Below are positions 3,303 through 43,219 of a stretch of DNA of 64,000 nucleotides, piece by piece. How positions within the stretch are numbered: the first letter of the stretch is position 1; each line of letters starts with the position of its first letter. The position numbers were made by a program, and so were the translations under genes. The stretch is from Dehalococcoidia bacterium (GTDB taxonomy: Bacteria > Chloroflexota > Dehalococcoidia > GIF9 > UBA5629). Below the pieces are notes generated by a model. The model saw only the letters and a list, made by a program, of their open reading frames with translations. It was not told where the DNA came from and did no database searches. Where the stretch lies: contig JBAZEK010000001.1 of assembly GCA_041653995.1 (NCBI GenBank), positions 1,030,613-1,094,612 of the forward strand, in the 5' to 3' direction.

Positions 3303-3919
3303 GACTGTTCAACGGCACTGAAACTTGCACATAATCCCTTGCTATAGATTACCAGGCATCCCAGCAGGCTTAATGCCAGCACCGCCGGCGCCACCAGCAG
3401 CCCGAGTATAAAGAAGAAAGCATCCTCGAAGCCGAACCAGACGCTGACCAGATTATGCAGGACGATGGCCAGCGCGATTGTGCTGAGACAGAGCCCGGCT
3501 GTAATCAGGCATATCCTGAGCCATCTTGCCGCTTTCTCACCCAGGCAGGGACGGACACGGTCATAGTAATAATAGCCGATGACATAGACGAAGCCCACGA
3601 CCACGAGTTGTCCGCTGATGATCAGCTCTTTGGGAGTATTCTTGAAGACATTGAACCTGAACAGCAATATCAGCACTATGCTGGCAATAAAGAAAAATAT
3701 TCCGGTCAGGCGCATTGCACCTGTGAGATTATCGCGAACCCGTTCATCGATGACGGGCATCCGGCCGTGACGGATGAGCGACCACAATTCACGATGCCCC
3801 AGCAGCAAAATACCGGCTATCAGCGCTATCACTACGTACAGGTTCTCTCTGGAAAGCATCAGCATCAATGCCAGCAAACTGACAGCGGCATAGGCTATTA
3901 GTATCCATCTTGCTTTCAC
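3299..3919 (-). CDS. multi-pass membrane protein (DUF2178-like partner of short XRE regulators)
   Basis: 206 aa with several TM helices, translationally coupled to the XRE gene. The paralogous pair at 23503..24129 has the same organisation. Confidence 0.55.
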
Positions 3920-9684: not shown

Positions 9685-10050
9685 ATGGTAATATATTCAG
9701 GGAGTAATCATTTGGCTGAATTGAAATTGGACCGGGTCACGCTGTATGAGTTTCATGCTCAGTTCTGCAAGACGCTGGCTGACGCCAATCGTTTGCTGAT
9801 CATCGCAGAACTTGTCGGTGGAGAGAAGTCTGTGACCGATCTGGCGCACAATCTGGGCCTCGGTCAGTCCAATGTGTCGAAGCACCTGGCGCTGATGAGG
9901 GAGCGCGGACTGGTGGAAACCAGGCGTGACGGCGCGTCCATCTACTACTCACTGTCGGACCCCAGAATCTTTAAGGCTATTGAACTGCTGGTGCAGGTTC
10001 AAACCGAACAGGTTGCCAGAAGGCATAGCCTTGCGCAGCACAGCCGCTGA
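9685..10050 (+). CDS. ArsR/SmtB-family transcriptional regulator
   Basis: 'FCKTLADANRLLIIAELVGGEKSVTDLAHNLGLGQSNVSKHLALMRERGLV' winged-HTH signature. Confidence 0.85.
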   Translation: MVIYSGSNHLAELKLDRVTLYEFHAQFCKTLADANRLLIIAELVGGEKSVTDLAHNLGLGQSNVSKHLALMRERGLVETRRDGASIYYSLSDPRIFKAIELLVQVQTEQVARRHSLAQHSR

Positions 10051-16351: not shown

Positions 16352-16378
16352 CGTACCTTTATACAGAGGTTACTTTCG

Positions 16379-16873
16379 ATGCAGGGCTATGAGATAAGAC
16401 GGGTACGGGAGGCGGACCGCAGCACCGTGGTGAGCATCTTCAACTACTTCGTTGAGAACAGCTTCGCTGCCTACCCCGATAAAAAAGTGGGGCCGGAGAT
16501 CTTCGACCTGCTTAAAAATATGAGCAGGGCGGGGGTTTTTTATGTGGCGGAAACGGCAGACAAAGAGGTGATAGGCTTCGCCCTGCTGAGACATCACCAG
16601 GTTGCAGAGGCGTTCAAGCGTGCCGGCGAGATCACCTATTTCATTCTGCCCGGGCACGAACGCAGGGGCCTGGGCTCCCGCTTTATGGAGACCATTATTA
16701 TTGATGCCAGGGCTGCAGGTGTGGAAACGCTACTGGCCAATATATCATCGCTCAACGAGGTGAGCCTAAATTTCCACCTCAAGCACGGATTCAAAGAGTG
16801 CGGAAGCTTCCAGCGCATCGGGCAGAAGTTCGGCCGGGATTTCGACGTCGTCTGGATGCAGAAATTCCTGTAG
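16379..16873 (+). CDS. GNAT-family N-acetyltransferase
   Basis: 164 aa with 'HERRGLGSRFME' acetyl-CoA binding-type motif. Overall resembles phosphinothricin-acetyltransferase-like GNATs. Confidence 0.75.
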   Translation: MQGYEIRRVREADRSTVVSIFNYFVENSFAAYPDKKVGPEIFDLLKNMSRAGVFYVAETADKEVIGFALLRHHQVAEAFKRAGEITYFILPGHERRGLGSRFMETIIIDARAAGVETLLANISSLNEVSLNFHLKHGFKECGSFQRIGQKFGRDFDVVWMQKFL

Positions 16874-16886
16874 GCCGGCGCACGCG

Positions 16887-16972
16887 TCATTACGAGGAAC
16901 GCAGTGACGAAGCAATCTTGTGCCGTCATGCGCGTGAACAGGATTGCCGCGCCCTCCGGGCTCGCAATGACC
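16887..16972. repeat. REP-like palindromic intergenic element, copy 2
   Basis: 'tcattacgaggaacgcagtgacgaagcaatc...gattgccgcgccctccgggctcgcaatga'. The left half differs from copy 1 at only 2-3 positions. Lies between convergent genes. Confidence 0.7.
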
Positions 16973-16990
16973 AATGATGATTAATACTTA

Positions 16991-18259
16991 CTACTTCGAG
17001 CGGAAATCGAAAGGCCCGATTTTAAATTCGTACTGATCTGAGTCCGGCGCCGGTATCCAATCCTGGCCGTCGCCCTGGTCGAACTCATAGTACCCCGGCA
17101 GCCTGTCGGGCCATTCAGCCAGCTCAACCGGCACCGAGAGCTGCTGATCCCCTCTCTGTATAGACAGTGTGACTTTATCCCCCGGCTTCTTGCCGTTGAA
17201 ATAAGAAAGGATATCGTTCACTTTAGCTACAGGTGTATCATCAACCGCCAGGATAATGTCGCCACCCGCCGCAGGCTCGTTTTGTTTATTCCTGCCGCTC
17301 TCCACCAACCCGGCCCTGTCCGCAGGGCTGCCGGTTATAACGCCGACGATGTACACGCCCTTCGTCGCCTTGAGATCCAGCTTGTCCTCCAGGTCTCGGC
17401 TGACGGGCATGCCCTCGATGCCGAGCCAGGGGGCCCTGATGGTGCTGCCCTTGATCAGCTCAGGCAGTACTTTTTTAGCGGTATTGATAGGTACGGCAAA
17501 TCCCACCCCGTTGGCTGTGGCCTCTATAGCAGTATTGATACCGACTACTTCGCCTTTCGAATTGAGCAGCGGGCCGCCGGAATTGCCGGGATTGATTGCG
17601 GCGTCCGTCTGTATGATATCCGTTATATTGCGGCTGTTGGAATTTGGTATGGACCTGCCCGTGCCGCTGATGATGCCGATGGTGATAGAGCCCTGCAGAC
17701 CGTAGGGCGAACCAAGGGCCAACGCCATCTGGCCGGGTTTGACCTCGCTGGAATCTGCCATCACCAGGTATGTCAGGTTCGGCACTTTGGAAGCATCCAC
17801 CTGCAGCAGGGCTACATCGTTATTGAGGTCTGCTCCGATGACCTTTCCCTGGAGCTCGCTGCCGTCGCTGAGCACGATCTTGACGGTGGAAGCCCTGTCC
17901 ACCACGTGGTTATTGGTGAGAATATGGCCTTCCGTATCGATGATGAAGCCCGATCCCTGCCCCCTCATATTGGGTATATCCAGGCCGAAGGGGCCGAGCA
18001 ATTTAGAGGCGATCGTTGTCTCGGATTCCACCTGCACCACGGCCGGTATGCACTTTTCATACAGCGAAACAACCGTGTCTTCATCGTAGAGCGGCGTCAC
18101 CTGCACCGTCGCCGATGAGGAGGGAAGGTTGATGGACTTCTGCTCCGTGGAAACGGATCCCGCGCTGCAGCCGGTAAGCAGGAGCGCAGCAATTAAAAGG
18201 GCAGCGGCCGGCGTTCCGATCATGCTGCGCCGTCCACTGCAAATTTTTAATAAAGACAT
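16991..18259 (-). CDS. HtrA/DegP-type trypsin-like serine protease with PDZ domain
   Basis: 'GSGFIIDTEGHILTNNHVV', 'DVALLQV' and 'GNSGGPL' catalytic triad motifs, a C-terminal PDZ, and a lipoprotein-type signal. Confidence 0.9.
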   Translation of the reverse strand: MSLLKICSGRRSMIGTPAAALLIAALLLTGCSAGSVSTEQKSINLPSSSATVQVTPLYDEDTVVSLYEKCIPAVVQVESETTIASKLLGPFGLDIPNMRGQGSGFIIDTEGHILTNNHVVDRASTVKIVLSDGSELQGKVIGADLNNDVALLQVDASKVPNLTYLVMADSSEVKPGQMALALGSPYGLQGSITIGIISGTGRSIPNSNSRNITDIIQTDAAINPGNSGGPLLNSKGEVVGINTAIEATANGVGFAVPINTAKKVLPELIKGSTIRAPWLGIEGMPVSRDLEDKLDLKATKGVYIVGVITGSPADRAGLVESGRNKQNEPAAGGDIILAVDDTPVAKVNDILSYFNGKKPGDKVTLSIQRGDQQLSVPVELAEWPDRLPGYYEFDQGDGQDWIPAPDSDQYEFKIGPFDFRSK

Positions 18260-31038: not shown

Positions 31039-31275
31039 TTACATGATGTAGGGCGTGCGGCAGCATTTAAGTGCAACACGATGAGAACATATGGTGGGCG
31101 ATACTGGATTTGAACCAGTGACCCCCTGTGTGTAAGACAGGTAAAAACCTTTAATTGACTGGAGCTTATTGATAATCTCTAGGGAAGCCTTACGTTGTCC
31201 TGAAAGAATCATGCTCAAATAGCTTTTACTGATACCTAATTCTTTGGCTAATTGACTCTGTGTTAACTTTTTCAT
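31039..31275 (-). CDS. HTH protein = putative N-terminal fragment of the split integrase (Int-N)
   Basis: ATG 31275 abuts the xis-like stop. HTH 'LTQSQLAKELGISKSYLSMILSG'. Residues 49-61 are encoded by the att/tRNA copy and the last 17 aa by host flank. Confidence 0.6.
   Translation of the reverse strand: MKKLTQSQLAKELGISKSYLSMILSGQRKASLEIINKLQSIKGFYLSYTQGVTGSNPVSPTICSHRVALKCCRTPYIM
31092..31142. repeat. att site (distal copy): 3' 51 nt of tRNA-Val(UAC) without the 5' half
   Basis: 'tggtgggcgatactggatttgaaccagtgaccccctgtgtgtaagacaggt' is identical to 43144-43194. Confidence 0.95.
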
Positions 31276-31530
31276 TTATTTCACCCGCCTTTTTATATCC
31301 TTTAAGCCTGCGTTTCCAATTATCGGTAAATATTGGTACGACTTCTTCTGTCTTCCTTTTGCACTAAAGTTCCCCTGTGGTTTTCTCACAAAATGACAGT
31401 CTACCTCATCAATAAGCCATCTCCGTCCAATGTAGAGTGCATTAATCCGTCCCTCTGACAAAAGCTTACGAACCCGTCTCTCAGATATACCAAGCCTTTC
31501 TGCTGCCTGTGGAACCGTAAGTAGTTTCAT
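31276..31530 (-). CDS. excisionase-family DNA-binding protein (Xis-like)
   Basis: 'LLTVPQAAERLGISERRVRKLLSEGRINALYIGRRWLI' is the typical excisionase/MerR-type HTH_17 pattern. Confidence 0.7.
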   Translation of the reverse strand: MKLLTVPQAAERLGISERRVRKLLSEGRINALYIGRRWLIDEVDCHFVRKPQGNFSAKGRQKKSYQYLPIIGNAGLKDIKRRVK

Positions 31531-31706
31531 TCAATTACCTTCTATCATTTTAATATTATACCGTTATCGGAATAATGTCAAGTATAATTACAAGCTAAAA
31601 TATCTTTTCTTTTTGCCGCATTTTTCCATAATACTCCGCAGAATTTTTTCAAATCGTATTTAAATTAAGTTTTAAAAGTTCAAGAATGAGGGTTTATAAT
31701 ATGCAT

Positions 31707-31817
31707 ATAAACTGGAAGCATATGGAAGGAAGCACGATAGAAAGTTAGAACGTAAGCAAGCGAGTAAGCAAGAAGGAAAGCAGGCGAGCAGGGAAGCTAT
31801 GTTGCTTTCCTTTTTTT
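31707..31817 (+). ncRNA. candidate ~110-nt purine-rich small RNA or leader ending in an intrinsic terminator
   Basis: TATAAT at 31695-31700. Five GGA motifs. 8-bp stem ggaaagca/tgctttcc (31775-82 / 31803-10) followed by T7. Confidence 0.3.
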
Positions 31818-31841
31818 AATTTTTTGATTCGGAGGTACGAA

Positions 31842-32057
31842 ATGACTGAAAACAAGGTCAAGGAAATTAGATTGAGCAAATGCATGAATCAGAGAGAACT
31901 GGCAGAGAGAGCTCATATCTGTCAAACAGCTATTTCAGACATTGAAAGGGGGGTAAGACTACCATGGAAAGCAGCGTCTGAAAAGCTTGCTATTGCATTG
32001 GGTGTCACAATCGAGGAATTATTCCCAAACAATCTTAGGGGAGGTAAAAATTGCTAA
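31842..32057 (+). CDS. Cro/CI-type XRE HTH regulator
   Basis: ATG 31842 after GGAGG. 'MNQRELAERAHICQTAISDIERGVRLP'. Divergent from xis-int. Confidence 0.75.
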   Translation: MTENKVKEIRLSKCMNQRELAERAHICQTAISDIERGVRLPWKAASEKLAIALGVTIEELFPNNLRGGKNC

Positions 32058-32398
32058 ACAAAAATAGAACGTCTTTAAAGCTGGGAAACAAGAAAGTAGG
32101 CTACTTTGAAGGTGATAAATTCATCAAACCCGTAATCGGCTCAAAGCATCTGCTGAAATTTCCTTACCAAGCTTGGGCAATTGATGCCAAAGTATTTGAC
32201 GATGAAATTAAACCTAACGCCAATTATTTTATTGTAAGAGATAGGGAGTCGGGGCTTGAATATAGTTGTACGGTAAAGGACTTCGACAATTTAAAGCGAA
32301 CCATTAACAGAGGGTATGGTAAGCAGTACAGTCTATCTCTAAAACATTGGAAAATAGCAGCTATGGAAGACGCTGAAGCTTCCAGTAACGCAACATAG
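32051..32398 (+). CDS. hypothetical protein
   Basis: 115-aa ORF with TTG start after GGAGG, overlapping the cro-like stop by 7 nt. No recognisable motifs. Confidence 0.5.
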   Translation: MLNKNRTSLKLGNKKVGYFEGDKFIKPVIGSKHLLKFPYQAWAIDAKVFDDEIKPNANYFIVRDRESGLEYSCTVKDFDNLKRTINRGYGKQYSLSLKHWKIAAMEDAEASSNAT

Positions 32399-32579
32399 AG
32401 TAGTGCAGCACCCGTTTTAGTAGTTGGAGGTGCTGTGTAAAAATGGTATTAGACAGAAGGAAAAGGCTGATGGAGGAGGGTATGACTCGCCATGATATTT
32501 CAGGAGCCTACTTATTTAATCAATTCAAGTGAGTTGTAATAGATGGTCATACCTATTCGATGGTCTTAAGGAGGAAAAT

Positions 32580-33026
32580 ATGATTCAGGGCATAGAAAAT
32601 TATATAAATTTAACAGATACCAAGAATGAATGGGCAAAATTTCTAAATGGCTTTGAATGGCATTGGTTCTTTACTCTCACATTTGATAAAAAGGTAAGTG
32701 ATGACTTGGCATACAAGCAATTCTTTAGGTGGAAGAATTGGATAAAGAGTTCAGTAGGACACAGAATTTTCTATCTAATTATTCCTGAGCGTCCCAAGTA
32801 TAAGGGAGATAATACTCATATTCATGGATTTCTTAATGGTGTTGAAAATGAGAAACCCTACATATGGAGAAGGAAATGGGAGGCAATGGCAGGCTTTTCT
32901 CGGATTCAACCCTATGATAGTTCAAGGGGTGCAAGCTATTATCTAGCGGATAAAATTGTATTTAAAGAAGAGGATATTTATCATAGCAAAGACCTAAATA
33001 TGATAAAGATAAATACACTCAATTAA
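32580..33026 (+). CDS. HUH-superfamily rolling-circle replication initiator (Rep)-like protein
   Basis: ATG 32580 after AAGGAGG. Motif I 'FFTLTF', motif II 'THIHGFL' (HUH), motif III 'YYLADK'. Confidence 0.55.
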   Translation: MIQGIENYINLTDTKNEWAKFLNGFEWHWFFTLTFDKKVSDDLAYKQFFRWKNWIKSSVGHRIFYLIIPERPKYKGDNTHIHGFLNGVENEKPYIWRRKWEAMAGFSRIQPYDSSRGASYYLADKIVFKEEDIYHSKDLNMIKINTLN

Positions 33027-33117
33027 ATCCATTATATATATCAATATGATTATTACTACAAACATCAATATTTATTTCTTTTACTTTTACTTTTCCTTAT
33101 GCCCCTTTTTTATTTTT

Positions 33118-33172
33118 GCCCCAAATATGAATTAAATATAAATATCTACAATTAATTGCATAAAATTGGGGC
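33118..33172. other. hairpin (7-bp GC-rich stem, 41-nt AT-rich loop): candidate replication origin
   Basis: gccccaa (33118-24) pairs with ttggggc (33166-72). The loop holds 'taaatataaatatctacaa' (33133-51), which recurs at 34198-34216. Confidence 0.35.
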
Positions 33173-33231
33173 ATAGGGAAAAAATCACATATAAAATTCA
33201 AATAGAAAGTCAGGAGGAATCAGTAAGTAAA

Positions 33232-33858
33232 ATGAGTACAATAATTTCAAAACCTACGACAATTCAAATTAGCATGCTTGGGACACATGCCTTTTGTGAA
33301 TATAGGATATATCTTGAGCTTGTTATGGGTTTTAAAGCACGAGGTACACCAGAAATGCTTGAAGGCACAAAAGCACACTCAAGGATAAATACGATGGCTT
33401 TCTTAACGAGAGATTCAAATATTAGCATTGAGGATGCGTTGCTCCAAGCAGAGTCAGACGGAAGAGAAATAACAAAAAGGAACGTACGGGTAACAGGTAA
33501 GATACTACGTGGGAATATCGATGAAATTCACATTGGGCCAAAAGAAATTACGATTATAGATGATAAAAAATGGGCAGAGCATTATCCATCATATAAAAAT
33601 CAAGTCTTTGGCTATTGCCTTGCGTTTAAAGAACAATACAACCCAAAGCAGCCGATATACGGTGCCATAAAGAATTATCAGTCTGGAAAGGAAGTCTGGA
33701 AAAAACAATTTTCAGTTTTGGAAGAGGAATATATAAACGGCATTGTTCAAAGAATACTGGGGATAATTCGTGAGGATATCACTCCAAAACCCATTGGTGT
33801 TAGAGAAGTATGCTGGCAATGTGGATTTAAAAATTACTGCAATGTAAGGACACGATAG
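33232..33858 (+). CDS. Cas4-like PD-(D/E)XK nuclease with 4-Cys cluster
   Basis: N-terminal Cys 'HAFCEYRIYLE', 'IDEIH', 'IIDDKK', 'NQVFGY' (QxxxY), C-terminal 'CWQCGFKNYC' (C-x2-C-x5-C). AGGAGG upstream of ATG 33232. Confidence 0.6.
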   Translation: MSTIISKPTTIQISMLGTHAFCEYRIYLELVMGFKARGTPEMLEGTKAHSRINTMAFLTRDSNISIEDALLQAESDGREITKRNVRVTGKILRGNIDEIHIGPKEITIIDDKKWAEHYPSYKNQVFGYCLAFKEQYNPKQPIYGAIKNYQSGKEVWKKQFSVLEEEYINGIVQRILGIIREDITPKPIGVREVCWQCGFKNYCNVRTR

Positions 33859-33895
33859 CAAAATGGTGGAAAAAGGAAAAAGAAGAAACTAACTA

Positions 33896-34159
33896 CTATA
33901 CTGCCTTGAAACCCACAATAAAGTAATTTGATTTATCAAATATAAGTCTTATCTTGTGTTCTGAATTATCCTTGCCGGCCAGGGCAATTAAGAATGATAG
34001 CTTCTTTGGATTAGTAACTGTCTTAGAAATTGGACGATGGACAATAAAACCCTCAAGTTCAATCTTCACATATCTACAGCCAGTCTTCGGATATGGCAAA
34101 TCCTTCTCTTCCACAATATCTATATATTTGCATATGGCTGAATTTGTCCTTCTTGGCAT
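33896..34159 (-). CDS. hypothetical protein
   Basis: 87-aa ORF on the opposite strand, with purine-rich SD (AAGGGAAGAAAGGAA) upstream of the ATG. Confidence 0.4.
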   Translation of the reverse strand: MPRRTNSAICKYIDIVEEKDLPYPKTGCRYVKIELEGFIVHRPISKTVTNPKKLSFLIALAGKDNSEHKIRLIFDKSNYFIVGFKAV

Positions 34160-34503
34160 ATTTATTTCCTTTCTTCCCTTTTCCGCTAAATTTAAACTAA
34201 ATATAAATATCTACAAATTATTATATTAAATCCACAACCAAATTTGAATATGAATGCCACAGATAAATGGCGGAAAAGAAAAAGAGTCTTAGAGATATTA
34301 TTATTTTGTATTATTTTCTTTAATAGTCAGATAGCAAGTGTGGCTAAGGGCAATTTTACCTTTAAAAATATTGAATCTGGTTGTCATTTGTCTAGTGCTT
34401 TAAAAATAGAAAACCTTCACGTGTGAGAAATGCCAGTAGCACGTGTATTAGAAGCGGCATTTTAAATAAAATCTTAGCCCAAAGTCATAGCAAATATAGA
34501 TTG

Positions 34504-34532
34504 TTGCATGCGTCCTTTTAATACGATAGAAT
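34504..34532 (+). promoter_or_regulatory. promoter TTGCAT-17 nt-TAGAAT (copy A)
   Basis: Both hexamers and the spacing are conserved in the duplicated unit at 40413-40441. Confidence 0.5.
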
Positions 34533-34558
34533 ACGGTCAATGTAGTGAGGCTGGGGAG

Positions 34559-36502
34559 ATGAAATATTTACTTGCTTGTTTCATAGCACTATTCGTTATA
34601 TCAGCCTGTGCATCTCAAGTCCATGTTGGTGACCAAGCTCCAAACTTCACACTGACAGATATAAATGGTAAACGTATTAGTCTGCAAGATTTTCGTGGCA
34701 AGCAGGTTGTTCTTTATCTTTGGTTTTTATATTGTCCTGAATGTACAGAAGACCTTGCTGAGATTCAAGAGTTGAATAATAATAGTGACGAAAGAGTCAT
34801 TAAGTTCCTAACCATTAACCCAGAAAATTCATCAAAAGACGTTGCGGATTTTTTCACTAAAAATGGATATAGTTTCCCAGTTTTGTTTGATTTAGATGGA
34901 AGTATTTACAAGCAATATAATTTACGACCTCGGTCTGCACCCTACACAATAATTATTGCTCCTGATGGAAAGATTAACAATATTACAGTGGGGAATCTTC
35001 ATTATCAAGGTGGTTTAAAACGGTTAATTGGAGATAACGTAACATCCTTCAGTCCAAGTGCACAAACTCAAAAGACTCCAATAATTATCGTACCCAGTTT
35101 ACAATCTCATGGTGTCGATGAACTTGCTTATGTATCTAGCGAAACGAACACGAACTCTATATATGTCGTGAATGCAAACGGGGAATATATTGCTAACTCA
35201 TCTGGAAAAATGGATGCATTATACCATGTTAGTTGGTCGCCAAACGGAGATAAGATTATTTTTGAAGTGGTTAAAGATATCAATATAGACCAGAGAAATA
35301 TGACCCTTATTTCTTCGTCTGATATTTATTCTCTTGATATTAAAGACCATGAAGAGCGTAGACTTACTTCAAATTATCCGTATAGCAATTGTTCTCCCAC
35401 ATGGATTGAAGACGATAAAATCGTATTTTATTCAACAAGGGGAAGTTCGTATGGCAGTTTTTTACAAAATATATACATCATGAACGCAGACGGAAGTAAT
35501 CAGATAAATTTAACTAATTGTGCAGAGAATGTACCTATGGTATTAGAACCAATATTATCGCCTGACCACTTGTCTGCAGCATATATTACGGGTAAGTTAT
35601 TCGATGAAGATATATATGTGATAAACCTAGTGAATGGAAATAAATTTGAAATAGGCCATAATCCAACATTTGCACCCTGGACTTGGTGGTCTCCAAACAG
35701 TAAACAGATAGCGTATATATCTGCCTCTCTAAACGGGGGGCCTGAATCATTTTATCTCTACGATGTCGAAAAACAGAAACCGATAAAATACTATGATAGC
35801 CCTCAATCTTATTCTATTATGGAAATAGCATGGTCGCCAGACAGTAACAAAGTCGCTATTTTTGAAAAACCGCAGAGCTTGTATGTTTTAGATTGTCTGA
35901 GTTCCAAGTTTACAAAACTTGATGGGATATGTGACTGGGTAGTAGAGATGAAATGGATACCTAATAACCAACAAATAGCCATTATTGGTGACAGGTTTAC
36001 AAACAGAAACTTGTATGTAATTGATATTGGTGAGCAGAGTAAGCATAAAATCAATCCAGAGGGAACGGCAGTCGAGTCGTATCGATGGTCAACTGATAAT
36101 ACAAGAATCATTTATTGCTTAGATGATGGATATCTTTACACAACTTTCCTACCCAACTTAAATACCATAAAACTAATGCAACTTAATAAAAATACGATAA
36201 AAGGGTTAGCTTTGTCACCAGACGGTTTATTAATCGCTGTTGCTCTGAGTGACGATACTCTAACTGTAATTTCATTAAACAATAACAAGGTGTGCTTGTT
36301 AACTAATGATTATTACAATATTGGAGCAATTTCTTGGTCGCAAAACAGTAACATACTTGCATTTGAATACGGAACTTTATGGGATAGTCCGTTTGTATGC
36401 AGTAACATTCAAATCATCAATTTCGAAAACGAGGAACAGTTCATTAAATTAGATAAACCAATCTCAGGACGCTCTCCAATTTGGGCGAGAAAGGAAAAAT
36501 AA
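34559..36502 (+). CDS. lipoprotein: TlpA/ResA-like thioredoxin domain (CPEC) fused to TolB-like beta-propeller
   Basis: Signal 'MKYLLACFIALFVISAC'. 'VGDQAPNFTLTDINGKRISLQDFRGKQVVLYLWFLYCPEC'. Then >=8 PD40-like blades ('SWSPNGDKIIFE', 'WWSPNSKQIAYIS', 'AWSPDSNKVAIF', 'ALSPDGLLIAVA'). Confidence 0.75.
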   Translation: MKYLLACFIALFVISACASQVHVGDQAPNFTLTDINGKRISLQDFRGKQVVLYLWFLYCPECTEDLAEIQELNNNSDERVIKFLTINPENSSKDVADFFTKNGYSFPVLFDLDGSIYKQYNLRPRSAPYTIIIAPDGKINNITVGNLHYQGGLKRLIGDNVTSFSPSAQTQKTPIIIVPSLQSHGVDELAYVSSETNTNSIYVVNANGEYIANSSGKMDALYHVSWSPNGDKIIFEVVKDINIDQRNMTLISSSDIYSLDIKDHEERRLTSNYPYSNCSPTWIEDDKIVFYSTRGSSYGSFLQNIYIMNADGSNQINLTNCAENVPMVLEPILSPDHLSAAYITGKLFDEDIYVINLVNGNKFEIGHNPTFAPWTWWSPNSKQIAYISASLNGGPESFYLYDVEKQKPIKYYDSPQSYSIMEIAWSPDSNKVAIFEKPQSLYVLDCLSSKFTKLDGICDWVVEMKWIPNNQQIAIIGDRFTNRNLYVIDIGEQSKHKINPEGTAVESYRWSTDNTRIIYCLDDGYLYTTFLPNLNTIKLMQLNKNTIKGLALSPDGLLIAVALSDDTLTVISLNNNKVCLLTNDYYNIGAISWSQNSNILAFEYGTLWDSPFVCSNIQIINFENEEQFIKLDKPISGRSPIWARKEK

Positions 36503-37451: not shown

Positions 37452-37511
37452 GGAACTGACTAAACCCCTGAAACTGGCAGCTCGAGTAAGAAAAATGGCG
37501 GGAAAGAAAAT

Positions 37512-39368
37512 TTGATTTATATGTTATGGGATGATACGTATCGTAAAGATGCAGCGGAGTATGAAATCTATCTGCGTATGCATCATAAAGAAAAAAACGA
37601 TTACGAGAAGCTTTTATCTAATCTTGAACGTGAGTGGTCAGAAAAATCAGTTAAAGAAGAAAACTACATATCGCTTAAAAAGGAATACACAGCGAAACTA
37701 CAGGAAACAAAGAAGTACATTTCAAAGCTGAAATTCCAGATTACAGCACTCATTAAAAAATGTAATAAAGACATAGATAAAATCGATAGCCAAATTGAAC
37801 AAATTAAATTGCGGCACAAAGTTGGTGAATATTCAGAGGAGAAACTCAAAGAACTATTATCACCATCTGAAACAGAAAGAAGGCAATTTGAATCCTTAAT
37901 AATCGAACTGAAACGCATACATGGCTTGAAATATATACCTAAACCAACTACCGATGATGTTGTATCAGAAACAGAACCGAGTCAGCCTAGAAGGTCTCCT
38001 ATCCCAACGTCATCTACTTCTATTTCAACAGCTGAAGAGCAAGCCCCCGAAATATCAGCACCAATGAGTTTTGAAGAACCGCCTCCTATTTTGGTACCTG
38101 CTGTATTTAAAAAGTCTTCACCTGTAAGAGTAAAGAAGAGTCTGTGGATTATGGCTTCGATTACTATGTTTGTAATATTAATTCTCTGTTTTGTTATTTG
38201 GAATATAGAAGTGCATAAAAAGGTAATCCCTCAGATTGGAGACCAAGCTCCAAACTTCTCTCTCCCAGATATGAATGGTAAAACGGTTAACCTTCAGGAC
38301 TTTCACGGAAAGGGTGTTGTTCTTTACCTTTGGGACACATCATGTCCTTACTGCAAAAATGACCTTAGCTGGATAAATGAATTAAATGGCTGCACCTATG
38401 ACGAAGCAATAATATTTTTAACTATTAATATCTCAGATTCACGTGGAACAGCTATTAAATATTTTGAGGAAAATGGATATAGTATTCCCGTTTTAAATGA
38501 TATGCGTGGGACGGTTATTAAGCAGTATGTAAAGTACACCTTAGGCCATACGTATCCAGATACTATTCTTATTGGTTCAAATGGCCAGATTCGTAATGTA
38601 AAAGTCGGGCCCTTCCAAAGCAAGACTGAATTAAAAACATTTATAGAATCAGGTTTAACCCCCCGTTGGGATAATACTCCTCCACAAATTTATGATATTA
38701 ATCTTTCTAAGGCCTCTATTTTGAGTTGGAAAACGGATGAGGAAACACATAGTAATATACAAGGGTTTCGTAATAGTGTCGGAGGTGCTGGAGTCACTCT
38801 TGGTGAAAATTGGACAAGATATCATAGCGTAAATGAAACAGTTTGCACTAATGGCTACTATGACCAAATTCAAATCAACTCGTATGACCGCTGCGGTAAT
38901 TCTGCTTCAAAAGTTTTTACACTGCCCAACTGCATAAATTTAGGTTGTAGAGCTCCTGATTTCACAGCAACTTCAACTAATAATCAGGATATAACGCTGT
39001 CCGCAGTACCTAGCAAAATGACTCTACTTCACTTCTGGCTACTCGGATGTGGTGCATGTGAAAAGGAACTTCCATTAATCCAAAAACTATATTATGAGCG
39101 TCCTAGAGAAGAACTTGAGATATTGGCTGTGAATGTTAGAGGTGACATATACAGCATAAATGACTTCGTTACTGCAAATGGTTATAGATTAATTATTTTA
39201 CTAGATACAGAAGGCATAATAGATGCCGCCTATCATAATCCAAGGTTCCCCACAACCTTTTTATTGGATTGCAATAAGGTAATTATTAACAAGCATGACG
39301 GTGCCTTTCAAAATTATGAAGAAATCGTTGATTTTGTAGGTCAGTATCCAAAACTTCCTGGTAAATAG
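37512..39368 (+). CDS. coiled-coil / TM / thioredoxin (CPYC) / Fn3-like / thioredoxin (CGAC) protein
   Basis: 618 aa. TM 'LWIMASITMFVILILCFVIW'. 'IGDQAPNFSLPDMNGKTVNLQDFHGKGVVLYLWDTSCPYC', 'ILSWKTDEETHS', 'CRAPDFTATS...LLHFWLLGCGAC'. Start uncertain (TTG 37512, ATG 37521, or frameshifted ATG 37495). Confidence 0.7.
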   Translation: MIYMLWDDTYRKDAAEYEIYLRMHHKEKNDYEKLLSNLEREWSEKSVKEENYISLKKEYTAKLQETKKYISKLKFQITALIKKCNKDIDKIDSQIEQIKLRHKVGEYSEEKLKELLSPSETERRQFESLIIELKRIHGLKYIPKPTTDDVVSETEPSQPRRSPIPTSSTSISTAEEQAPEISAPMSFEEPPPILVPAVFKKSSPVRVKKSLWIMASITMFVILILCFVIWNIEVHKKVIPQIGDQAPNFSLPDMNGKTVNLQDFHGKGVVLYLWDTSCPYCKNDLSWINELNGCTYDEAIIFLTINISDSRGTAIKYFEENGYSIPVLNDMRGTVIKQYVKYTLGHTYPDTILIGSNGQIRNVKVGPFQSKTELKTFIESGLTPRWDNTPPQIYDINLSKASILSWKTDEETHSNIQGFRNSVGGAGVTLGENWTRYHSVNETVCTNGYYDQIQINSYDRCGNSASKVFTLPNCINLGCRAPDFTATSTNNQDITLSAVPSKMTLLHFWLLGCGACEKELPLIQKLYYERPREELEILAVNVRGDIYSINDFVTANGYRLIILLDTEGIIDAAYHNPRFPTTFLLDCNKVIINKHDGAFQNYEEIVDFVGQYPKLPGK

Positions 39369-39441
39369 ATAATTTCTTGATATTAAGAAATCGAGGTGTA
39401 CTGGTCTGAACCCCTGAAACTGGACAGCTTGAGTAAGAAAA

Positions 39442-39951
39442 ATGGCGGAAAAAGAAATGCAACAGGAGGAGCATCCCCTAAATATGGGGAAGCTACTTGT
39501 GAATTTCCAATCACTTGAGATAGCTCTCCGTCTATTTCTTTATAATGATGAAATTGCCTCTAGAGTTTCATCTCCTCAGGCGGTAAACCTAAATGCTATG
39601 AATGCGGGGGATATAGTAGCTGAAAATGCGTTCACAAACTATGATAGTCTAAGTCAACTCATTGATAAATATAATAACCATCCCAACATCATATCGACAG
39701 GTCTAACCATTGATAAGACTTTAGTGGACATACGTGATGCAATAGCTCATGGAAGAGTCGCTGGAGTCACTCCTTTGCTTGTGCCTCCTTTAAAACTAAT
39801 GAAGTTTGATAAACCAAAGAACAAAAGTGTGAAAGTAACATTTAGCGTTTTATTGACAAGGGAATGGTTCATTCTAGAGATGGCTAAGGTTCAAGATGCA
39901 GTTTTTAAAGTCTTTCAAGCTATCCAAATAATACAGAGTGCTAAGACATAA
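39442..39951 (+). CDS. hypothetical protein with RxxxxH (HEPN-like) motif
   Basis: 169 aa, predicted helical. 'VDIRDAIAHGRV' matches the Rx4-6H HEPN signature. Motif-level evidence only. Confidence 0.45.
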   Translation: MAEKEMQQEEHPLNMGKLLVNFQSLEIALRLFLYNDEIASRVSSPQAVNLNAMNAGDIVAENAFTNYDSLSQLIDKYNNHPNIISTGLTIDKTLVDIRDAIAHGRVAGVTPLLVPPLKLMKFDKPKNKSVKVTFSVLLTREWFILEMAKVQDAVFKVFQAIQIIQSAKT

Positions 39952-40412
39952 GTGGTGCCCTCTGAAATCGCTCTGAGGGGCTGAAATCAGGGTGTTGCAT
40001 ATTGAACATGACGGATTCCACCTGTCATTACTATTCCAGCTTAATTAGAGCCTTTAAAGTATTAAACAGTAAAGGTAATAACTCTACTTCCTTTCCCTTA
40101 AGCCCCTTTATTATTTCTTCGCCTAAGTTTCCGTTCAAGTGAATTATGTCGCTTTTAAGACCAACAAACGCTGGTACACCATAAACACGTTTACGTTCAA
40201 GCCAATTATGTCGTTTTGCATATATTATTTCCAGCTTAAATTAACTACAGAAAAATGGGGCAAAAAGAGAAAAAGGGGAATTATATATCAATTTATTGTC
40301 AATAATCTTTGAAATACTATTACTTCATCTGAGAGAGATGCCAGCAGCTAAGTGTAACGGCATTGAATTTTAAATAACTTCTCAGCCCAAAGTGGTAACG
40401 CATATAGGTCTA

Positions 40413-40441
40413 TTGCATAAGTATTGTTCATATAATAGAAT
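40413..40441 (+). promoter_or_regulatory. promoter TTGCAT-17 nt-TAGAAT (copy B)
   Basis: Same hexamers and spacing as 34504-34532. Followed by an identical 5' UTR and signal-peptide coding sequence. Confidence 0.5.
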
Positions 40442-40467
40442 ACGGTCAATGTAGTGAGGCTGGGGAG

Positions 40468-41880
40468 ATGAAATATTTACTTGCTTGTTTCATAGCACTA
40501 TTCGTTATATCAGCCTGCACACCAAATAACTCAATAAACAACGTTGAGACATTCCCAAAAATCGGAGATAAGATACCGAATATCTCATGGACTACTATCA
40601 ATGGCGAAAAGATTGATTTAAATCAGTTTAAAGGCAGTTGGGTGCTACTATGCTATTGGTGCTCTTGCCCTGTACATAGGAATGACATACTGACTATTCA
40701 TAATGTTTATGATTCATTATATGATAAGAATCTCGATGTCATTGTAATTAATGATACTTATGCTCAGATAGAATTAGAGGCATTTGGAAAACAAAACAAT
40801 GTACCGTTTTATTTAATTGAAGATAATCAAAAAACAATTGATAAACTTGTACCATTTGGCAACAGGCCAATATATCTCTTAATTGATGGGAGTGGGGATT
40901 TACATGCTATCGAAATAGGTACATTTCGCTCTGGCGAAAATAGCGTTAACAATGTAATCAATTTCCTTGATGATGTGATTAAGGTAAGAATCGATAATAT
41001 TACAGTCACTAATATTACTTCAAATAGGGCAACTGTGAGATGGAAAACAGATAAGGCAGTACCGTGTTGGTTGGAAATTCACCCCCAAGGTGACCCAATC
41101 GGAAAGTGCATCGGCAAGACAAATCCAAATACATTTCATGAATTGATATTAAACTGTAATCCCAACACAGCTTACACTTTTAACGTAGCTGCTAGTGGAT
41201 TAGATAATTCTTTAATTAACGATGCAAGCAATCGTAGTAGTGAATTTTCATTTCAAACATTACCAAATTGGGTTACTTCTTTATATGAGGTTGACTCTAC
41301 TAAACCAAAAATATCGAATGTTAAAGTTTCTATAATTACAGATACGAGTGCAGAGTTATATTGGGAAACTGATGTGGAAGCTCAAGTCACCGCTACAATC
41401 TGTAAATATATATCCAGTACTGATGCGCCCTTAAACTCCCAGAAAATTGATTTTATAGAAGACATATATTTTACAAAGAAACATAGCTTTACAATTAGCT
41501 CTCTTGAGCCAAGACGATTATATGACGTTGGTTTAAATGCCAAAGATAGAATGGGAAGGGTTGCCGATTACAGTGTCGAATTTTTAACACAACCTTCAAA
41601 TTATACTCACGGAGCGAAGATATCCAATATATCTTTATATGACATCACGGACAGGAGTGCTAAATTAAAATGGTCAACTGACAAGTCAGTATGGAGTTCA
41701 GCCTGCTATAAATATGAGTGCTCTTCTGGGGACATCAACACTGAGCATTCATATACACTATCCTATGGTCTGGAACCCGATACAGAATACTGGGTGCAAA
41801 TTCTAGCACATGGGGAATCGGTATCTGATGTATTCAACTTCAGAACATTAAAGACAACAGATAAGGTAGATATGAAATGA
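40468..41880 (+). CDS. lipoprotein: degenerate thioredoxin-like domain (WCSCP) plus three Fn3-like domains
   Basis: Identical signal 'MKYLLACFIALFVISAC'. 'IGDKIPNISWTTINGEKIDLNQFKGSWVLLCYWCSCP'. Fn3-like starts 'ITSNRATVRWKTDK', 'ITDTSAELYWETDV', 'ITDRSAKLKWSTDK'. Confidence 0.7.
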   Translation: MKYLLACFIALFVISACTPNNSINNVETFPKIGDKIPNISWTTINGEKIDLNQFKGSWVLLCYWCSCPVHRNDILTIHNVYDSLYDKNLDVIVINDTYAQIELEAFGKQNNVPFYLIEDNQKTIDKLVPFGNRPIYLLIDGSGDLHAIEIGTFRSGENSVNNVINFLDDVIKVRIDNITVTNITSNRATVRWKTDKAVPCWLEIHPQGDPIGKCIGKTNPNTFHELILNCNPNTAYTFNVAASGLDNSLINDASNRSSEFSFQTLPNWVTSLYEVDSTKPKISNVKVSIITDTSAELYWETDVEAQVTATICKYISSTDAPLNSQKIDFIEDIYFTKKHSFTISSLEPRRLYDVGLNAKDRMGRVADYSVEFLTQPSNYTHGAKISNISLYDITDRSAKLKWSTDKSVWSSACYKYECSSGDINTEHSYTLSYGLEPDTEYWVQILAHGESVSDVFNFRTLKTTDKVDMK

Positions 41881-42084: not shown

Positions 42085-42316
42085 TATAGACATATTTAAG
42101 AAAGTGGTGACTTATAAAACTTCATGCTGTCCTGAAAGCTGAATGACCGAGTATATCTTTGCACCATAATAAAGTTCAGCCAAGGCACCGTTAAAATGTA
42201 CTACAGAATTGTTCTAAAGGGCCAAAATGGGGTATATAATATAGGGCATGACAGATTCTTCCTGCCTGAGCTTTTCAAGCTTAATTATTGAACAAATAAC
42301 TATGAAATCCTGATTG

Positions 42317-43081
42317 CTAACGAGGTAACTGATTTGAGCCGTTCACATCTTTGTAGACTTGAAGAGCATCCTCAAAGGATAAAGATTTTGAATACCTTTC
42401 AACCATAGAAATGCTTTCCCAACCGCCTAGATTTTGCACAATACGAGTGGATAACCCAGACTTAATATTGTGAATACAAAACCCTCTTCTATAGCTATGG
42501 GCGTTGGACTTAATGCCAGTTTCTTTAGACAATCGTTTAAGCATAGTTTTAATGCCAGCTCTTGATATTTCAAAACTATCATGCTCATCAAACCACTTTC
42601 CGATAACACCATTACCAGCTAAAGCCTTACGATACTTGTTACCCTTGCCCAGAATGGTTACTGTACCTTCACCCCAGTCAAAGTCTTTAGCGTGCACATT
42701 AGCACATTCACTCAGCCTTACTCCTGAGTACCATAAGAAACTAATTAATGCTCTATCACGTTCACAATGACAATGATTTATCAGAACTTCTAATTGTTCT
42801 TTTGATACCGCAGGCAATAGCTTCTTTTGAATTTTTGGGCTAGGAACTTTGTCAATAACCTTGTCGTGAATATAGCTATTGCTGTATAGCCATGAAATGA
42901 GAGTTTTGAGAGCTTGATAGAATCTTGCTTTGCCATTATGACAGGTAAGTGATTTTAGATAAGCATTAACTCCATCTGGACTTAGGGGATAACCAATAAA
43001 ATGAGTTAAAGTATATTCGTAAAATTCAATAGTTCGCTTACTACAACCATCGGGGCGAGAAGAAATAAACTTCTCCAACAA
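42317..43081 (-). CDS. tyrosine recombinase, C-terminal part of split integrase (Int-C)
   Basis: Catalytic residues in 'GVRLSE' (R), 'HSYRRGF' (HxxR) and 'MVERY' (Y). No ATG or SD (track start is TTG) and first Met codon is at residue 180. The frame stays open upstream through attR. Confidence 0.85.
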   Translation of the reverse strand: MLEKFISSRPDGCSKRTIEFYEYTLTHFIGYPLSPDGVNAYLKSLTCHNGKARFYQALKTLISWLYSNSYIHDKVIDKVPSPKIQKKLLPAVSKEQLEVLINHCHCERDRALISFLWYSGVRLSECANVHAKDFDWGEGTVTILGKGNKYRKALAGNGVIGKWFDEHDSFEISRAGIKTMLKRLSKETGIKSNAHSYRRGFCIHNIKSGLSTRIVQNLGGWESISMVERYSKSLSFEDALQVYKDVNGSNQLPR

Positions 43082-43143: not shown

Positions 43144-43219
43144 TGGTGGGCGATACTGGATTTGAACCAGTGACCCCCTGTGTGTAAGACAGGTGCTCTA
43201 ACCGCTGAGCTAATCGCCC
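43144..43219 (-). tRNA. tRNA-Val (anticodon UAC), CCA encoded; integration target
   Basis: GGGCGATTAGCTCAGCGGTTAGAGCACCTGTCTTACACACAGGGGGTCACTGGTTCAAATCCAGTATCGCCCACCA. Anticodon loop CTTACAC. The 3' 51 nt form attR. Confidence 0.9.

Follow-up and report, generated by a model that had tools for sequence, protein, structure and literature searches.

A conserved non-coding module beside a mini-Rep gene, a possible replication origin, in a tRNA-integrated island of a Dehalococcoidia genome

Introduction

The closest solved structure to the HUH endonuclease described here is that of the mini-Rep of the rudivirus SIRV1 (ORF119; gp16 in SIRV2; PDB 2X3G), a stand-alone protein of 119 aa with a single tyrosine and no helicase. 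Rudiviruses also encode, in a conserved operon, a RecB/Cas4-like ssDNA nuclease, gp19 (PMC5062984, PMC3158340), and a 'flip-flop' mechanism has been proposed for SIRV1 ORF119 (PMC4187194). The element analysed here is contained in a 64-kb stretch of a Dehalococcoidia MAG (the window, meaning the whole stretch of DNA that was analysed) and resembles the rudiviruses in that a Cas4 gene follows its Rep gene, the product of which (148 aa) is likewise a stand-alone, single-tyrosine protein without a helicase. However, the two Reps are only 16% identical, the host is bacterial rather than crenarchaeal, and the rudivirus genome is linear and hairpin-ended, whereas the window replicon is an integrase-mobilised circular island; the 'flip-flop' mechanism therefore need not apply. 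A stand-alone 148-aa HUH nuclease accompanied by a solo Cas4 is an unusual module, and it links a bacterial element to a pairing of Rep and RecB/Cas4-like nuclease that has so far been discussed for archaeal rudiviruses. 'Solo-Cas4' has been reported in many Chloroflexi (PMC5704561), and the window element offers a context for it.

Origins of rolling-circle replication (RCR) in plasmids and phages, such as those of pC194, pUB110 and phiX174 or that of pMV158 with its 'bind' repeats and nick hairpin, share with the window locus a rep-adjacent cis site, short direct sub-repeats beside or inside an inverted repeat, and an AT-rich region. Unlike these origins, the window clade holds its core in a 'loop' of 41-62 nt, the stem is short and not present in all copies, and each element carries 2-4 copies. 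The window Rep belongs to the family of plectrovirus ORF2 and inovirus G2P (PF23343), but the island contains no inovirus morphogenesis genes, and typical G2P proteins are much longer than the 148-aa window Rep. In its layout, with an att site, regulators and Xis, rep, ori-like repeats, accessory genes and an integrase by a tRNA gene, as well as a 48-nt att duplication, the element is similar to ICEs and IMEs with Rep- or relaxase-driven rolling-circle replication and to phage-inducible chromosomal islands (PICIs; ori 3' of rep). Unlike in PICIs and ICEs, its Rep is an HUH nuclease of 148 aa and neither a primase-helicase (PICIs) nor a relaxase. IS91 and Helitrons encode a large two-tyrosine HUH transposase (with a fused helicase in Helitrons) and have ends defined by ori and ter without direct repeats, whereas the window Rep has one tyrosine and no helicase within its 148 aa, and the window cores lie 2 and 3 kb inside an element bounded by tRNA-Val.

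The integrated island and its gene content

The Rep gene is located in a low-GC island of 12.05 kb, at the left edge of which the GC content drops from ~0.53 to ~0.36. This left boundary is marked by attL (31095-31142, minus strand), an exact 48-nt copy, in direct repeat, of the 3' part of tRNA-Val(tac), which Rfam scored as a tRNA fragment (32.4 bits). The intact tRNA-Val(tac) is found at 43144-43219 (minus strand), with its 3' 48 nt constituting attR (43147-43194), and the island integrase, a small Xer/XerA-like tyrosine recombinase of 254 aa, is encoded at 42317-43081 on the same strand (phrog_216 and phrog_1 integrase, E 1e-22; NF040815, E 1.5e-31). The 48-nt tRNA-Val duplication together with the tyrosine integrase thus indicates that integration and excision are integrase-driven. 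The original prediction had raised the possibility that two copies of a sequence downstream of Rep act as a nick site and a termination site in an IS91- or Helitron-like ori/ter logic; this was not sustained, as the ends of the element are the 48-nt tRNA-Val duplication and its mobility is conferred by the tyrosine integrase.

The island encodes three HTH proteins, including an 84-aa Xis-like or regulatory HTH_17 protein (31276-31530, minus strand, divergent from the Rep operon; PF12728, E 2.8e-10) and a 71-aa XRE-type HTH regulator (31842-32057, plus strand; PF01381, E 5e-10), which opens the rightward operon. The HTH_17 gene shows 89% DNA identity to its counterpart in the related element L001, and a gene of this type immediately precedes Rep in six further cases: it is divergent in L001, L116 and the P0153 contigs (ERZ1426824 and ERZ1426834) and co-directional in L118, the P0005 contig and L119. 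Genes for conjugation, mobilisation or packaging were not recognised in the island. The island cargo consists of three paralogous secreted thioredoxin-fold proteins, all of which have large C-terminal domains and one of which is fused to a beta-propeller. Furthermore, AT-rich intergenic DNA is similar in composition throughout one element. At E <= 1, Rfam returned only tRNAs and the tRNA remnant, which ruled out a known RNA family such as a plasmid counter-transcript.

The mini-Rep and its neighbouring genes

The HMM match, the family alignment and the fold support the assignment of the ORF at 32580-33026 (plus strand) as an HUH Rep of 148 aa. All three RCR motifs that had been read from the sequence originally were found, namely motif I (WHWFFTLTF), the HUH motif H80-I-H82 (THIHGF) and the catalytic tyrosine Y121 within (AS)YYLADK. 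The HMM match is to an HUH Rep family, Pfam PF23343 (REP_ORF2-G2P), and not to a non-HUH family; it covers residues 29-123 with 28.0 bits (E 2.7e-6), a small margin over the gathering threshold of 27.8, and the precomputed annotation of Rep homologs gives the same family. Across 30 aligned homologs, H80, Y121, W27, W100 and G105 are invariant, and H82 as well as L33, T34 and F35 of motif I are present in at least 90%. K125 is invariant among the seven closest homologs, and the Yxxx[K/H] motif is found C-terminal to HUH; motif I (xxTLTx) is accompanied by an alpha/beta fold with HUH on the central strand. A helicase domain is absent, and the single conserved tyrosine places the protein in the Y1 type.

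The Rep family comprises at least 476 cluster representatives and is found in Acidobacteriota, Gammaproteobacteria, Gemmatimonadota, Planctomycetota and Chloroflexota; the cultured strain Congregibacter brevis IMCC45268 (L006) also carries a member. A genome-contig scan with the Rep protein alone gave no match, tblastn with Rep against 50,697 records of phages and 72,556 of plasmids was likewise negative, and IMG/VR yielded neither a Rep relative nor a match to the DNA pattern. PHROGs contains no family for Rep or for the two genes that follow it.

The first of these genes (33232-33858, plus strand) encodes a 208-aa Cas4-family PD-(D/E)XK nuclease (PF01930, PF12705), which scored 31 bits against PF01930 (cutoff 22.7) and E 7.6e-14 against TIGR00372, below the equivalog cutoff. 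Its translation carries the four-Cys Fe-S signature, with an N-terminal cysteine (C23) and a C-terminal CxxCxxxxxC (CWQCGFKNYC), and PADLOC Cas4 models match. Cas4 follows Rep also in L037, L116 and the P0153 contigs, and no CRISPR array or further cas gene was found in the island. The second gene, ORF87 (33896-34159, minus strand), is convergent with Cas4 and encodes 87 aa to which no function can be assigned by family, as Pfam, PHROGs, NCBIfam and PADLOC gave no match; its N-terminus is kept in a truncated 38-aa ORF of L001. A defence-system reading of Cas4 and ORF87 was rejected because PADLOC matched the Cas4 models only.

The Rep-proximal module

The DNA downstream of Rep contains a full module (copy 1; 33091-33182, plus strand) made up of a T/C-rich left arm, an AT-rich centre and a purine-rich right arm. 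The left arm consists of 33091-33105 plus the proximal TGCCCCAA at 33117-33124, and the right arm of TTGGGGCA at 33166-33173, which runs on to 33182 (longer right arm, 33168-33182). The 7-bp stem of the original prediction (gccccaa, 33118-33124; ttggggc, 33166-33172), which begins 92 nt past the Rep stop codon and encloses a 41-nt loop, is present and in fact extends to 8 bp when the whole of TGCCCCAA and TTGGGGCA is paired. The 29-nt core (33123-33151, plus strand; PWM score 36.6) consists of two 11-nt sub-repeats, AAATATGAAT-T-AAATATAAAT, followed by ATCTACAA, the core consensus being two 11-nt sub-repeats plus ATCTRCAA; the predicted 19-mer, TAAATATAAATATCTACAA (33133-33151), is the 3' part of this core. 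The right half (33149-33163, plus strand) is unique to the full unit and contains a 10-bp palindrome, CAATTAATTG (33149-33158), and TTGCATAA (33156-33163).

Whether the hairpin of copy 1 stands out from chance depends on how it is assessed. Shuffling the 205-nt intergenic region 2000 times never produced a GC-rich 7-bp inverted repeat, and the island as a whole has one at only two loci. The arms are strongly complementary, as folding restricted to arm-to-arm pairing gave z -5.8 (0/300 shuffles) and z -8.7 (0/500). The unconstrained fold of copy 1 (91 nt) was no better than shuffles (z -0.9). An intrinsic terminator was ruled out, since on both strands the stem comes after a T-run and before an A-run, its loop measures 41 nt, and the stem is absent from the output of the terminator scan.

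As the most likely reading, we tentatively regard the Rep-proximal copy as the origin of the element and the second copy, described below, as a partial duplicate overlapping the ORF87 promoter, and rate this interpretation at somewhat less than an even chance. The tyrosine integrase would insert the element at tRNA-Val and later excise it as a circle, the 148-aa single-tyrosine mini-Rep and the Cas4-family nuclease would constitute the replication module, and the full module (33091-33182) would serve on the excised circle as the double-strand origin, with a putative Rep binding and nicking site. After excision, Rep may bind the sub-repeats, the AT-rich centre may melt or extrude between the arms, and Rep would then nick one strand and prime rolling-circle copying, while Cas4 may process the displaced 5' ssDNA. 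We infer the binding, the nicking with its strand and position, and the role of Cas4 from the sequence. If this interpretation is correct, the cis-acting origin is now defined for a group of tRNA-integrated Chloroflexota elements that had not been described. Several points count against it: the window offers only a 6/8 octamer match, TTGCATAA, as a nick-site lead; the unconstrained fold of copy 1 does not surpass shuffles; the 'loop' of 41-62 nt far exceeds the 8-16 nt of other clades; four of ten modules have arms without significant complementarity; the comparison comprises just four independent elements, of which L001 looks partly decayed; no excised or ssDNA form was observed; multiple direct copies would be destabilising if every one were nicked; the palindromes (AGATATCT in L001 and L116; CAATTAATTG) and the three HTH genes fit an operator equally well; and copy 2 overlaps a good promoter consensus.

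The second copy and the repeat pair

Copy 2 (34179-34277, plus strand) is a partial unit with the left arm TTTTCCGC (34179-34186), a core at 34188-34216 (PWM score 35.4) and the right arm GCGGAAAA (34270-34277). Its arms are complementary (z -3.9, 2/300 shuffles), and it has only the left arm and the core in common with copy 1; its right half, CAAATTATTATATTAAAT, matches copy 2 of L001 and not copy 1. As originally predicted, the 19-mer recurs at 34198-34216, and these are the only two matches to it in the 64 kb even at <=3 mismatches (expected 0.03). The similar T/C-rich tracts noted before both copies were also recovered, as part of a 70-nt direct repeat with 74% identity (33097-33166 and 34162-34231), within which the cores are identical at 19/19 positions and the flanks at ~65%. 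The two copies indeed bracket the Cas4-like gene and the 87-aa minus-strand ORF. Duplication of the 19-mer is in itself expected near a rep gene and opens no long-standing question. Readings of the repeats as integron attC sites, Xis arm-sites or a MITE were dropped, as an R'/R'' core-site pattern is lacking, the distance from the repeats to the att sites is 2-3 kb, and terminal inverted repeats with target duplications are absent.

On the minus strand, copy 2 overlaps a sigma-70-like promoter directed toward ORF87 (34220-34248; TTCAAA-17-TATAAT, 10/12, a consensus match only); the 19-mer begins 4 nt downstream of its -10 element, and the ORF87 start lies 39 nt beyond. The earlier suggestion that the repeats are simply duplicated promoter DNA therefore retains some merit for the right half of copy 2. 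It does not extend to L001 and L116, in which the full module is placed between convergent 3' ends (Rep followed by a reverse 77-aa gene in L001, Cas4 followed by a reverse 251-aa gene in L116) and thus has no gene to promote, so that it is not simply a promoter.

In a broader form of this idea, the modules would be promoter/operator cassettes with a core bound by the XRE protein, the HTH_17 protein or Rep acting as a repressor, and nicking would be uninvolved; copy 1 would control Cas4 rightward, and copy 2 both ORF87 leftward and the cargo rightward. We consider such a purely transcriptional role rather unlikely, if well worth weighing. It accounts for the spacing of promoter, 19-mer and ORF87 at copy 2 and for the location of copy 1 ahead of Cas4 in the window, L037 and L116, the sub-palindromes AGATATCT and CAATTAATTG would suit dimeric HTH proteins, three of which the island encodes, and most genes have the purine-rich arm motif ahead of them, in their own orientation. 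However, the -35/-10 scan of copy 1 reported no site on either strand, with no acceptable pair on the plus strand, the conservation is contiguous over ~55 nt rather than confined to two hexamers, and the core occurs only beside Rep and Cas4, being absent upstream of other operons and from the promoter region of the Rep operon itself; the convergent placement in L001 and L116 likewise argues against transcriptional control. If copy 1 is the origin, copy 2 would most likely be an additional site bound by Rep, with a part in regulation or in something akin to termination, and not a second origin.

Conservation in related elements

The same core is found on the Rep strand in three related elements (L001, L036/L037 and L116), the Reps of which are 46-68% identical. 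The original prediction had been staked on the 19-mer being conserved beside Rep genes of homologous elements, and this was confirmed in a comparison of four independent elements only. Core PWM matches are located at 33123 and 34188 in the window, at 10538 and 11081 in L001, at 5411 and 5511 in L037 and at 2063 in L116, in all cases on the Rep strand and at most ~1.2 kb downstream of rep. The remainder of these islands and 647 kb of other loci yielded no match, and the 29-nt core is confined to the Rep+Cas4 subclade among the loci scanned. Elements contain 2-4 core copies in direct orientation, with a maximum of four in L037, where c1 and c2 have an exact 15-mer in common. The cores vary between elements, as expected of sites that are read by an element-specific protein.

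Between the window and L001, DNA identity is 75.5% over a block that starts 110 nt ahead of rep and takes in the module (window 32471-33169). A GC hairpin at 32406-32435 was considered as an alternative origin and rejected, as its DNA is not conserved in L001, where homology begins at 32471. Window copy 1 and L116 copy 2 have the 16-mer ATATCTACAATTAATT in common without a mismatch, despite only 46% identity between the two Reps, and L001 copy 1 departs from it at one position. The right half CAATTAATT..ATAAAAT is present in only one copy per element (window c1, L001 c1 and L116 c2). In 6 of 10 modules the arms pair better than shuffled arms do, and they do so with differing sequences (GCCCC/GGGGC, CCGC/GCGG, GCCGA/TCGGC and CTTCTTGGC/GCCAAGAAG), and complementarity was non-significant in the other four (L037 c1, c3 and c4; L116 c1). 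At the level of DNA comparison, these data support the downstream sequence as a conserved, Rep-linked non-coding element.

Conservation of this kind could also reflect recent common ancestry, with copy 2 being a leftover of segmental duplication or gene conversion that has no present function. That only four elements are known, that L001 looks partly decayed, with integrase remnants, and that intergenic DNA is compositionally alike within an element would suit such a residue. We nevertheless deem it improbable: the core is identical at 19/19 positions amid flanks of ~65% identity, it is kept where the Reps are 46-56% identical and the surrounding non-coding DNA is unalignable, and it always has the same strand and placement with respect to Rep.

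What lies between the cores varies from element to element: the window has Cas4 and ORF87, L001 a 77-aa membrane ORF and the truncated ORF87, L037 only Cas4, and the P0153 contigs an additional 97-aa ORF. Such variation would be compatible with an ori/ter cassette, in which Rep cleaves both cores, releases the Cas4+ORF87 segment (~1.07 kb) as an ssDNA circle and reinserts it at a resident core. Both cores lie on one strand as direct repeats, and ~105 nt after the Rep stop codon are repeated after the Cas4 stop codon in L037 and partly in L116, as expected of a one-site circle inserting at another. However, the breakpoints between the window and L001 do not fall at the cores, the one on the left being ~40 nt past core 1 and the one on the right within ORF87, and ordinary homologous recombination between ~100-nt repeats explains such an arrangement as well. 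Neither a free cassette circle nor the cassette in a different context was found, copy 2 is without the right half seen in copy 1, and the defining features of IS91 and Helitrons are absent; we therefore attach little credence to cassette release. An RCR replicon with two active nick sites in the same orientation would, moreover, be split. It is just as doubtful that all cores are Rep cleavage and joining sites through which the mini-Rep cuts out and inserts small gene cassettes as ssDNA circles, which would amount to an HUH-driven counterpart of integron cassette exchange inside an integrase-mobilised island and would account for the variable content between the cores.

Hairpins in other clades of the Rep family

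In other clades of the Rep family, the octamer TTGCTTGA is positioned at the apex of a GC hairpin 19-202 nt downstream of rep in 12 non-redundant loci (15 if near-identical duplicates are counted). Per-locus constrained folding against shuffles gave z <= -1.9 in 9 of the 12. The 5' arms are just 31% identical, so the stems of these hairpins covary; RNAalifold recovered only 4 invariant pairs from the gapless hairpin alignment, as the stems are shifted against one another by bulges. In still other clades, covarying hairpins are found on the upstream side of rep. Loops measure 8-16 nt in the other clades versus 41-62 nt in the window clade. In the window, TTGCATAA matches TTGCTTGA at 6/8 positions and is not conserved, the equivalent sequence being TTGAATAA in L001 and CGGCATAA in L037; we accordingly do not regard the window loop as homologous to the octamer of the family and keep the match as a weak lead. 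The TTGCTTGA loop (..CCTTGTA..) resembles CTTGATA, the nick-site core of the pC194/phiX174 group, a likeness that serves as a lead only. As a conserved octamer loop in covarying hairpins of many family members, TTGCTTGA provides a nick-site prediction for this Rep family.

Integrative element and cargo

The GC content drops to ~0.34-0.40 across 31-43 kb of the window, compared with ~0.45-0.60 (mostly >0.5) in the flanks, and 48 nt from the 3' part of tRNA-Val(tac), duplicated exactly, mark both borders of this low-GC island (31095-31142 and 43147-43194). A Xer-like tyrosine integrase of 254 aa (42317-43081) adjoins the intact tRNA, and the opposite end has three HTH genes, one Xis-like (HTH_17) and two of the XRE type. 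Based on the tRNA-Val duplication, the tyrosine integrase and the Xis-like gene, the region is therefore a 12.05-kb integrative element, mobile by its integrase and not by rolling-circle transposition. The analogy to IS91- or Helitron-like systems, which the original prediction had raised as one possibility for a repeated 19-mer near a rep gene, fails in two features that define them: the architecture of the transposase and the ends of the element. The leftmost XRE-type ORF (31039-31275, minus strand; C-terminus ...GVTGSNPVSPT) runs through attL into the tRNA-Val remnant, and its 3' end appears to have been supplied by this attachment-site sequence.

The cargo comprises three paralogous thioredoxin-fold proteins with an AhpC/TSA-type motif (34508-36502, 37512-39368 and 40468-41880), which are predicted to be exported or membrane-anchored by signal or membrane segments and each end in a large C-terminal domain, which is a beta-propeller in the first. 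The 5' regions of the first and third genes are duplicated (34459-34608 versus 40367-40517, 105 nt at 92%), and the signal peptide MKYLLACFIALFVISAC is identical in both proteins. The island of the related element L001 adjoins tRNA-Ala, with the tRNA on the Xis side, opposite to the window. Lacking an intact integrase and retaining remnants only, it looks like a decaying copy; two tandem remnants (16302-16393 and 16932-17023) resemble window positions 42101-42167, the 3' end of the integrase gene and beyond.

HUH endonuclease and adjacent genes

Reading of window positions 31800-35000 bore out the predicted Rep-like ORF (32580-33026, 148 aa) with the motifs WHWFFTLTF, THIHGF and ASYYLADK; its protein has an identical counterpart, annotated as hypothetical, in a Dehalococcoidia MAG. 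The proposed HUH identity was upheld by PF23343 (REP_ORF2-G2P), with a narrow margin of 28.0 bits over the gathering threshold of 27.8. With a cutoff of E <= 1e-3, an exhaustive HMMER scan recovered 476 cluster representatives, most of which are 130-170 aa long. In a 30-sequence alignment, W27, H80, W100, G105 and Y121 are invariant, and the motif I LTF (L33, T34, F35), E70 and H82 are nearly invariant. The nuclease domain of PCV2 Rep ranked first in Foldseek, and among PDB sequences the family profile matched SIRV1 ORF119 (E 0.0015), a dimeric stand-alone Rep of the superfamily II type (PMC4187194). The Pfam match, the invariant residues and the Foldseek and PDB matches therefore identify an HUH mini-Rep that has a single catalytic tyrosine and lacks a helicase domain. 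No PHROG family matches this protein, and tblastn of the Rep against phage, plasmid and IMG/VR collections gave zero matches.

Structurally, the nearest counterpart of the window Rep is the rudiviral mini-Rep, and its HUH family is Pfam-defined. The pairing of Rep with Cas4 is conserved in the window, L037, L116 and the P0153 contigs, which are four related elements or sets of contigs. It parallels the rudiviral Rep and gp17-19 operon, which includes a RecB/Cas4-like nuclease (PMC5062984, PMC3158340), and may explain part of the 'solo-Cas4' described for Chloroflexi (PMC5704561). Integrative elements that carry a rep gene with origin-like repeats beside it are already a known kind of system; the module of mini-Rep, Cas4, AT-rich clamped core and extra partial copies was unmatched in the phage, plasmid, IMG/VR and PHROG resources searched.

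Just upstream of Rep, a conserved stretch has the capacity to encode a short peptide (window 32445-32534, MVLDRRKRLMEEGMTRHDISGAYLFNQFK; L001 ~9895-9950; L037 ~3815-3870), with the motif (M/L)T(R/I)H(D/H)ISG common to all three; candidate roles for the stretch are leader peptide, small protein or regulatory RNA target.

Repeat modules

The 19-mer TAAATATAAATATCTACAA occurs twice as predicted (33133-33151 and 34198-34216), on either side of a Cas4-family gene (33232-33858) and ORF87, which encodes 87 aa on the minus strand (33896-34159); allowing <=3 mismatches, the 64-kb window contains no further match (expected 0.03). The similarity noted around both copies extends over 70 nt as a direct repeat with 74% identity (33097-33166 versus 34162-34231). 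The predicted hairpin stem is present 92 nt past the rep stop, but comprises 8 bp (TGCCCCAA, 33117-33124; TTGGGGCA, 33166-33173) rather than 7 bp.

Comparison with relatives shows the 19-mer to be just one part of a longer conserved unit. The conserved 29-nt core consists of two 11-nt sub-repeats (AAATATGAAT-T and AAATATAAAT-A) followed by ATCTRCAA. On its left is T/C-rich sequence that closes with a GC pentamer; on its right the full form has, in this order, the palindrome CAATTAATTG, ATAAAAT, another GC pentamer and purine-rich sequence. Both flanks represent the ~20-nt purine-rich motif AAAAATGGCGGAAAAAGAA in opposite orientations, forming the module arms (33102-33123 and 34165-34195, minus; 33161-33186, plus). 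This motif is also found by itself in the majority of the island's intergenic regions (31607-31625, minus; 33859-33877, 34263-34281, 37491-37509, 39438-39456 and 40251-40269, plus), with at least six matches at <=3 mismatches (expected 0.03), all intergenic, all within the island and mostly in the orientation of the downstream gene, a distribution reminiscent of orientation-dependent sites of the 'stoperator' or promoter-proximal kind. An inverted pair of the motif brackets ORF87, and related copies occur in L001, L037 and L116.

Unconstrained folding of copy 1 (the full module 3' of rep) was unremarkable (z -0.9). However, its GC-rich 7-bp inverted repeat was matched in 0/2000 shuffles of the intergenic region, and pairing of its 15-bp arms (33091-33105 and 33168-33182) reached z -5.8 against arm-shuffles, a test also passed by 5/9 other modules with differing arm sequences; the architecture of an inverted repeat is therefore genuine, although its conservation is imperfect. 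The island's only other GC-rich 7-bp inverted repeat, CAGCACC-N16-GGTGCTG (32406-32435), directly follows a 115-aa ORF, lies 145 nt upstream of Rep, is not followed by a T-run and lacks DNA-level conservation in L001.

Conservation and possible function of the core

The predicted conservation of the 19-mer beside homologous Rep genes was confirmed at the level of the core, which was found at 33123 and 34188 in the window, 10538 and 11081 in L001 (Rep identity 68%), 5411 and 5511 in L037 (L036/L037 being one element, 56%) and 2063 in L116 (46%). PWM matches were always on the Rep strand, with zero others in the rest of these islands or 647 kb of other loci. Within an element the core is more conserved than its flanks (19/19 in the window; an exact 15-mer between the two L037 copies), its sequence varies from element to element, and a 16-mer is common to window copy 1 and L116 copy 2 although the Reps are only 46% identical, which together point to a site read by a protein. 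A functionless duplication is very improbable.

The right half CAATTAATT..ATAAAAT is present in exactly one copy per element; copy 2 (the partial module) shares the left arm and core with copy 1 but differs in its right half, which is conserved in L001 copy 2. We tentatively favour the full, Rep-proximal module as the origin region of an excised circular element, in which the sub-repeats would bind Rep and the AT-rich centre, clamped by the arms, would open. Copy 2 is more likely a putative secondary binding site than a second origin, because it overlaps the putative ORF87 promoter. This overlap with a minus-strand 10/12 sigma-70 consensus (34248-34220) facing ORF87, together with the position of copy 1 before the Cas4 gene, partly supports the duplicated promoter DNA originally considered. 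A purely transcriptional operator or promoter is nevertheless somewhat less likely than an origin, as the promoter scan detected no site at copy 1, conservation in the module runs uninterrupted over ~55 nt, the core is missing from all other promoter regions of the islands, and the full module lies between convergent 3' ends in L001 and L116. Rep-driven ori/ter exchange of cassettes is suggested by the content between the cores, which varies among the window, L001, L037 and the P0153 contigs, but it is hardly probable and is weakened by window/L001 breakpoints that lie away from the cores.

Hairpins in other clades of the Rep family

In 15 loci of other clades (12 without near-identical duplicates), including Gammaproteobacteria, Methylomirabilota, Gemmatimonadota and Planctomycetota, the octamer TTGCTTGA is located 19-202 nt downstream of rep. 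It forms the apex of GC-rich hairpins (L005 6545-6600, L006, L009, L010, L011, L014, L032, L072, L076, L077, L104 and L111, e.g. 2316-2355) with covarying stems that differ wholly between loci and phyla (5'-arm identity 31%); z is <= -1.9 in 9/12, and in five 0/200 shuffles were as good. The octamer is a strong candidate for the nick-site loop of the Rep family. Among its carriers is an organism in culture, Congregibacter brevis IMCC45268 (L006).

Clades differ in where the putative origin lies with respect to rep. In one acidobacterial clade (L003, L038-L048 and L052-L057; e.g. L003 5950 and 6681), TTGCTTGA precedes the Rep start by ~50 nt, immediately ahead of the ribosome-binding site, and a conserved palindrome, CAACGTAACGTTG, lies 31-71 nt past the Rep stop. 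Covarying GC hairpins are found upstream of rep in L007, L051 and L102 (~60-100 nt) and in the L080-L115 marine-sediment contigs, one with the conserved loop ..ATCCATCCTTGTA.. and others of the types GGTCAAAG..CTTGACC and GGGGAGAC..GTCTCCCC. The octamer and covarying hairpins beside rep across clades make a Rep-adjacent cis hairpin a family trait; the window module sits in the equivalent place as a different, AT-rich version. It resembles the octamer only at TTGCATAA (33156-33163), a 6/8 match that lacks conservation in L001 and L037. In a clade of 135-aa Reps from Chloroflexia and peat metagenomes, a conserved GC-rich hairpin of variable loop sequence, GTATGGGCCCAAGGCCAGG ... CCTGGCCAGGCCCACCCATA, directly follows the Rep stop (L118 5420-5475; L002 6415-6470; L119 1783-1815) and could be either a terminator or an origin.
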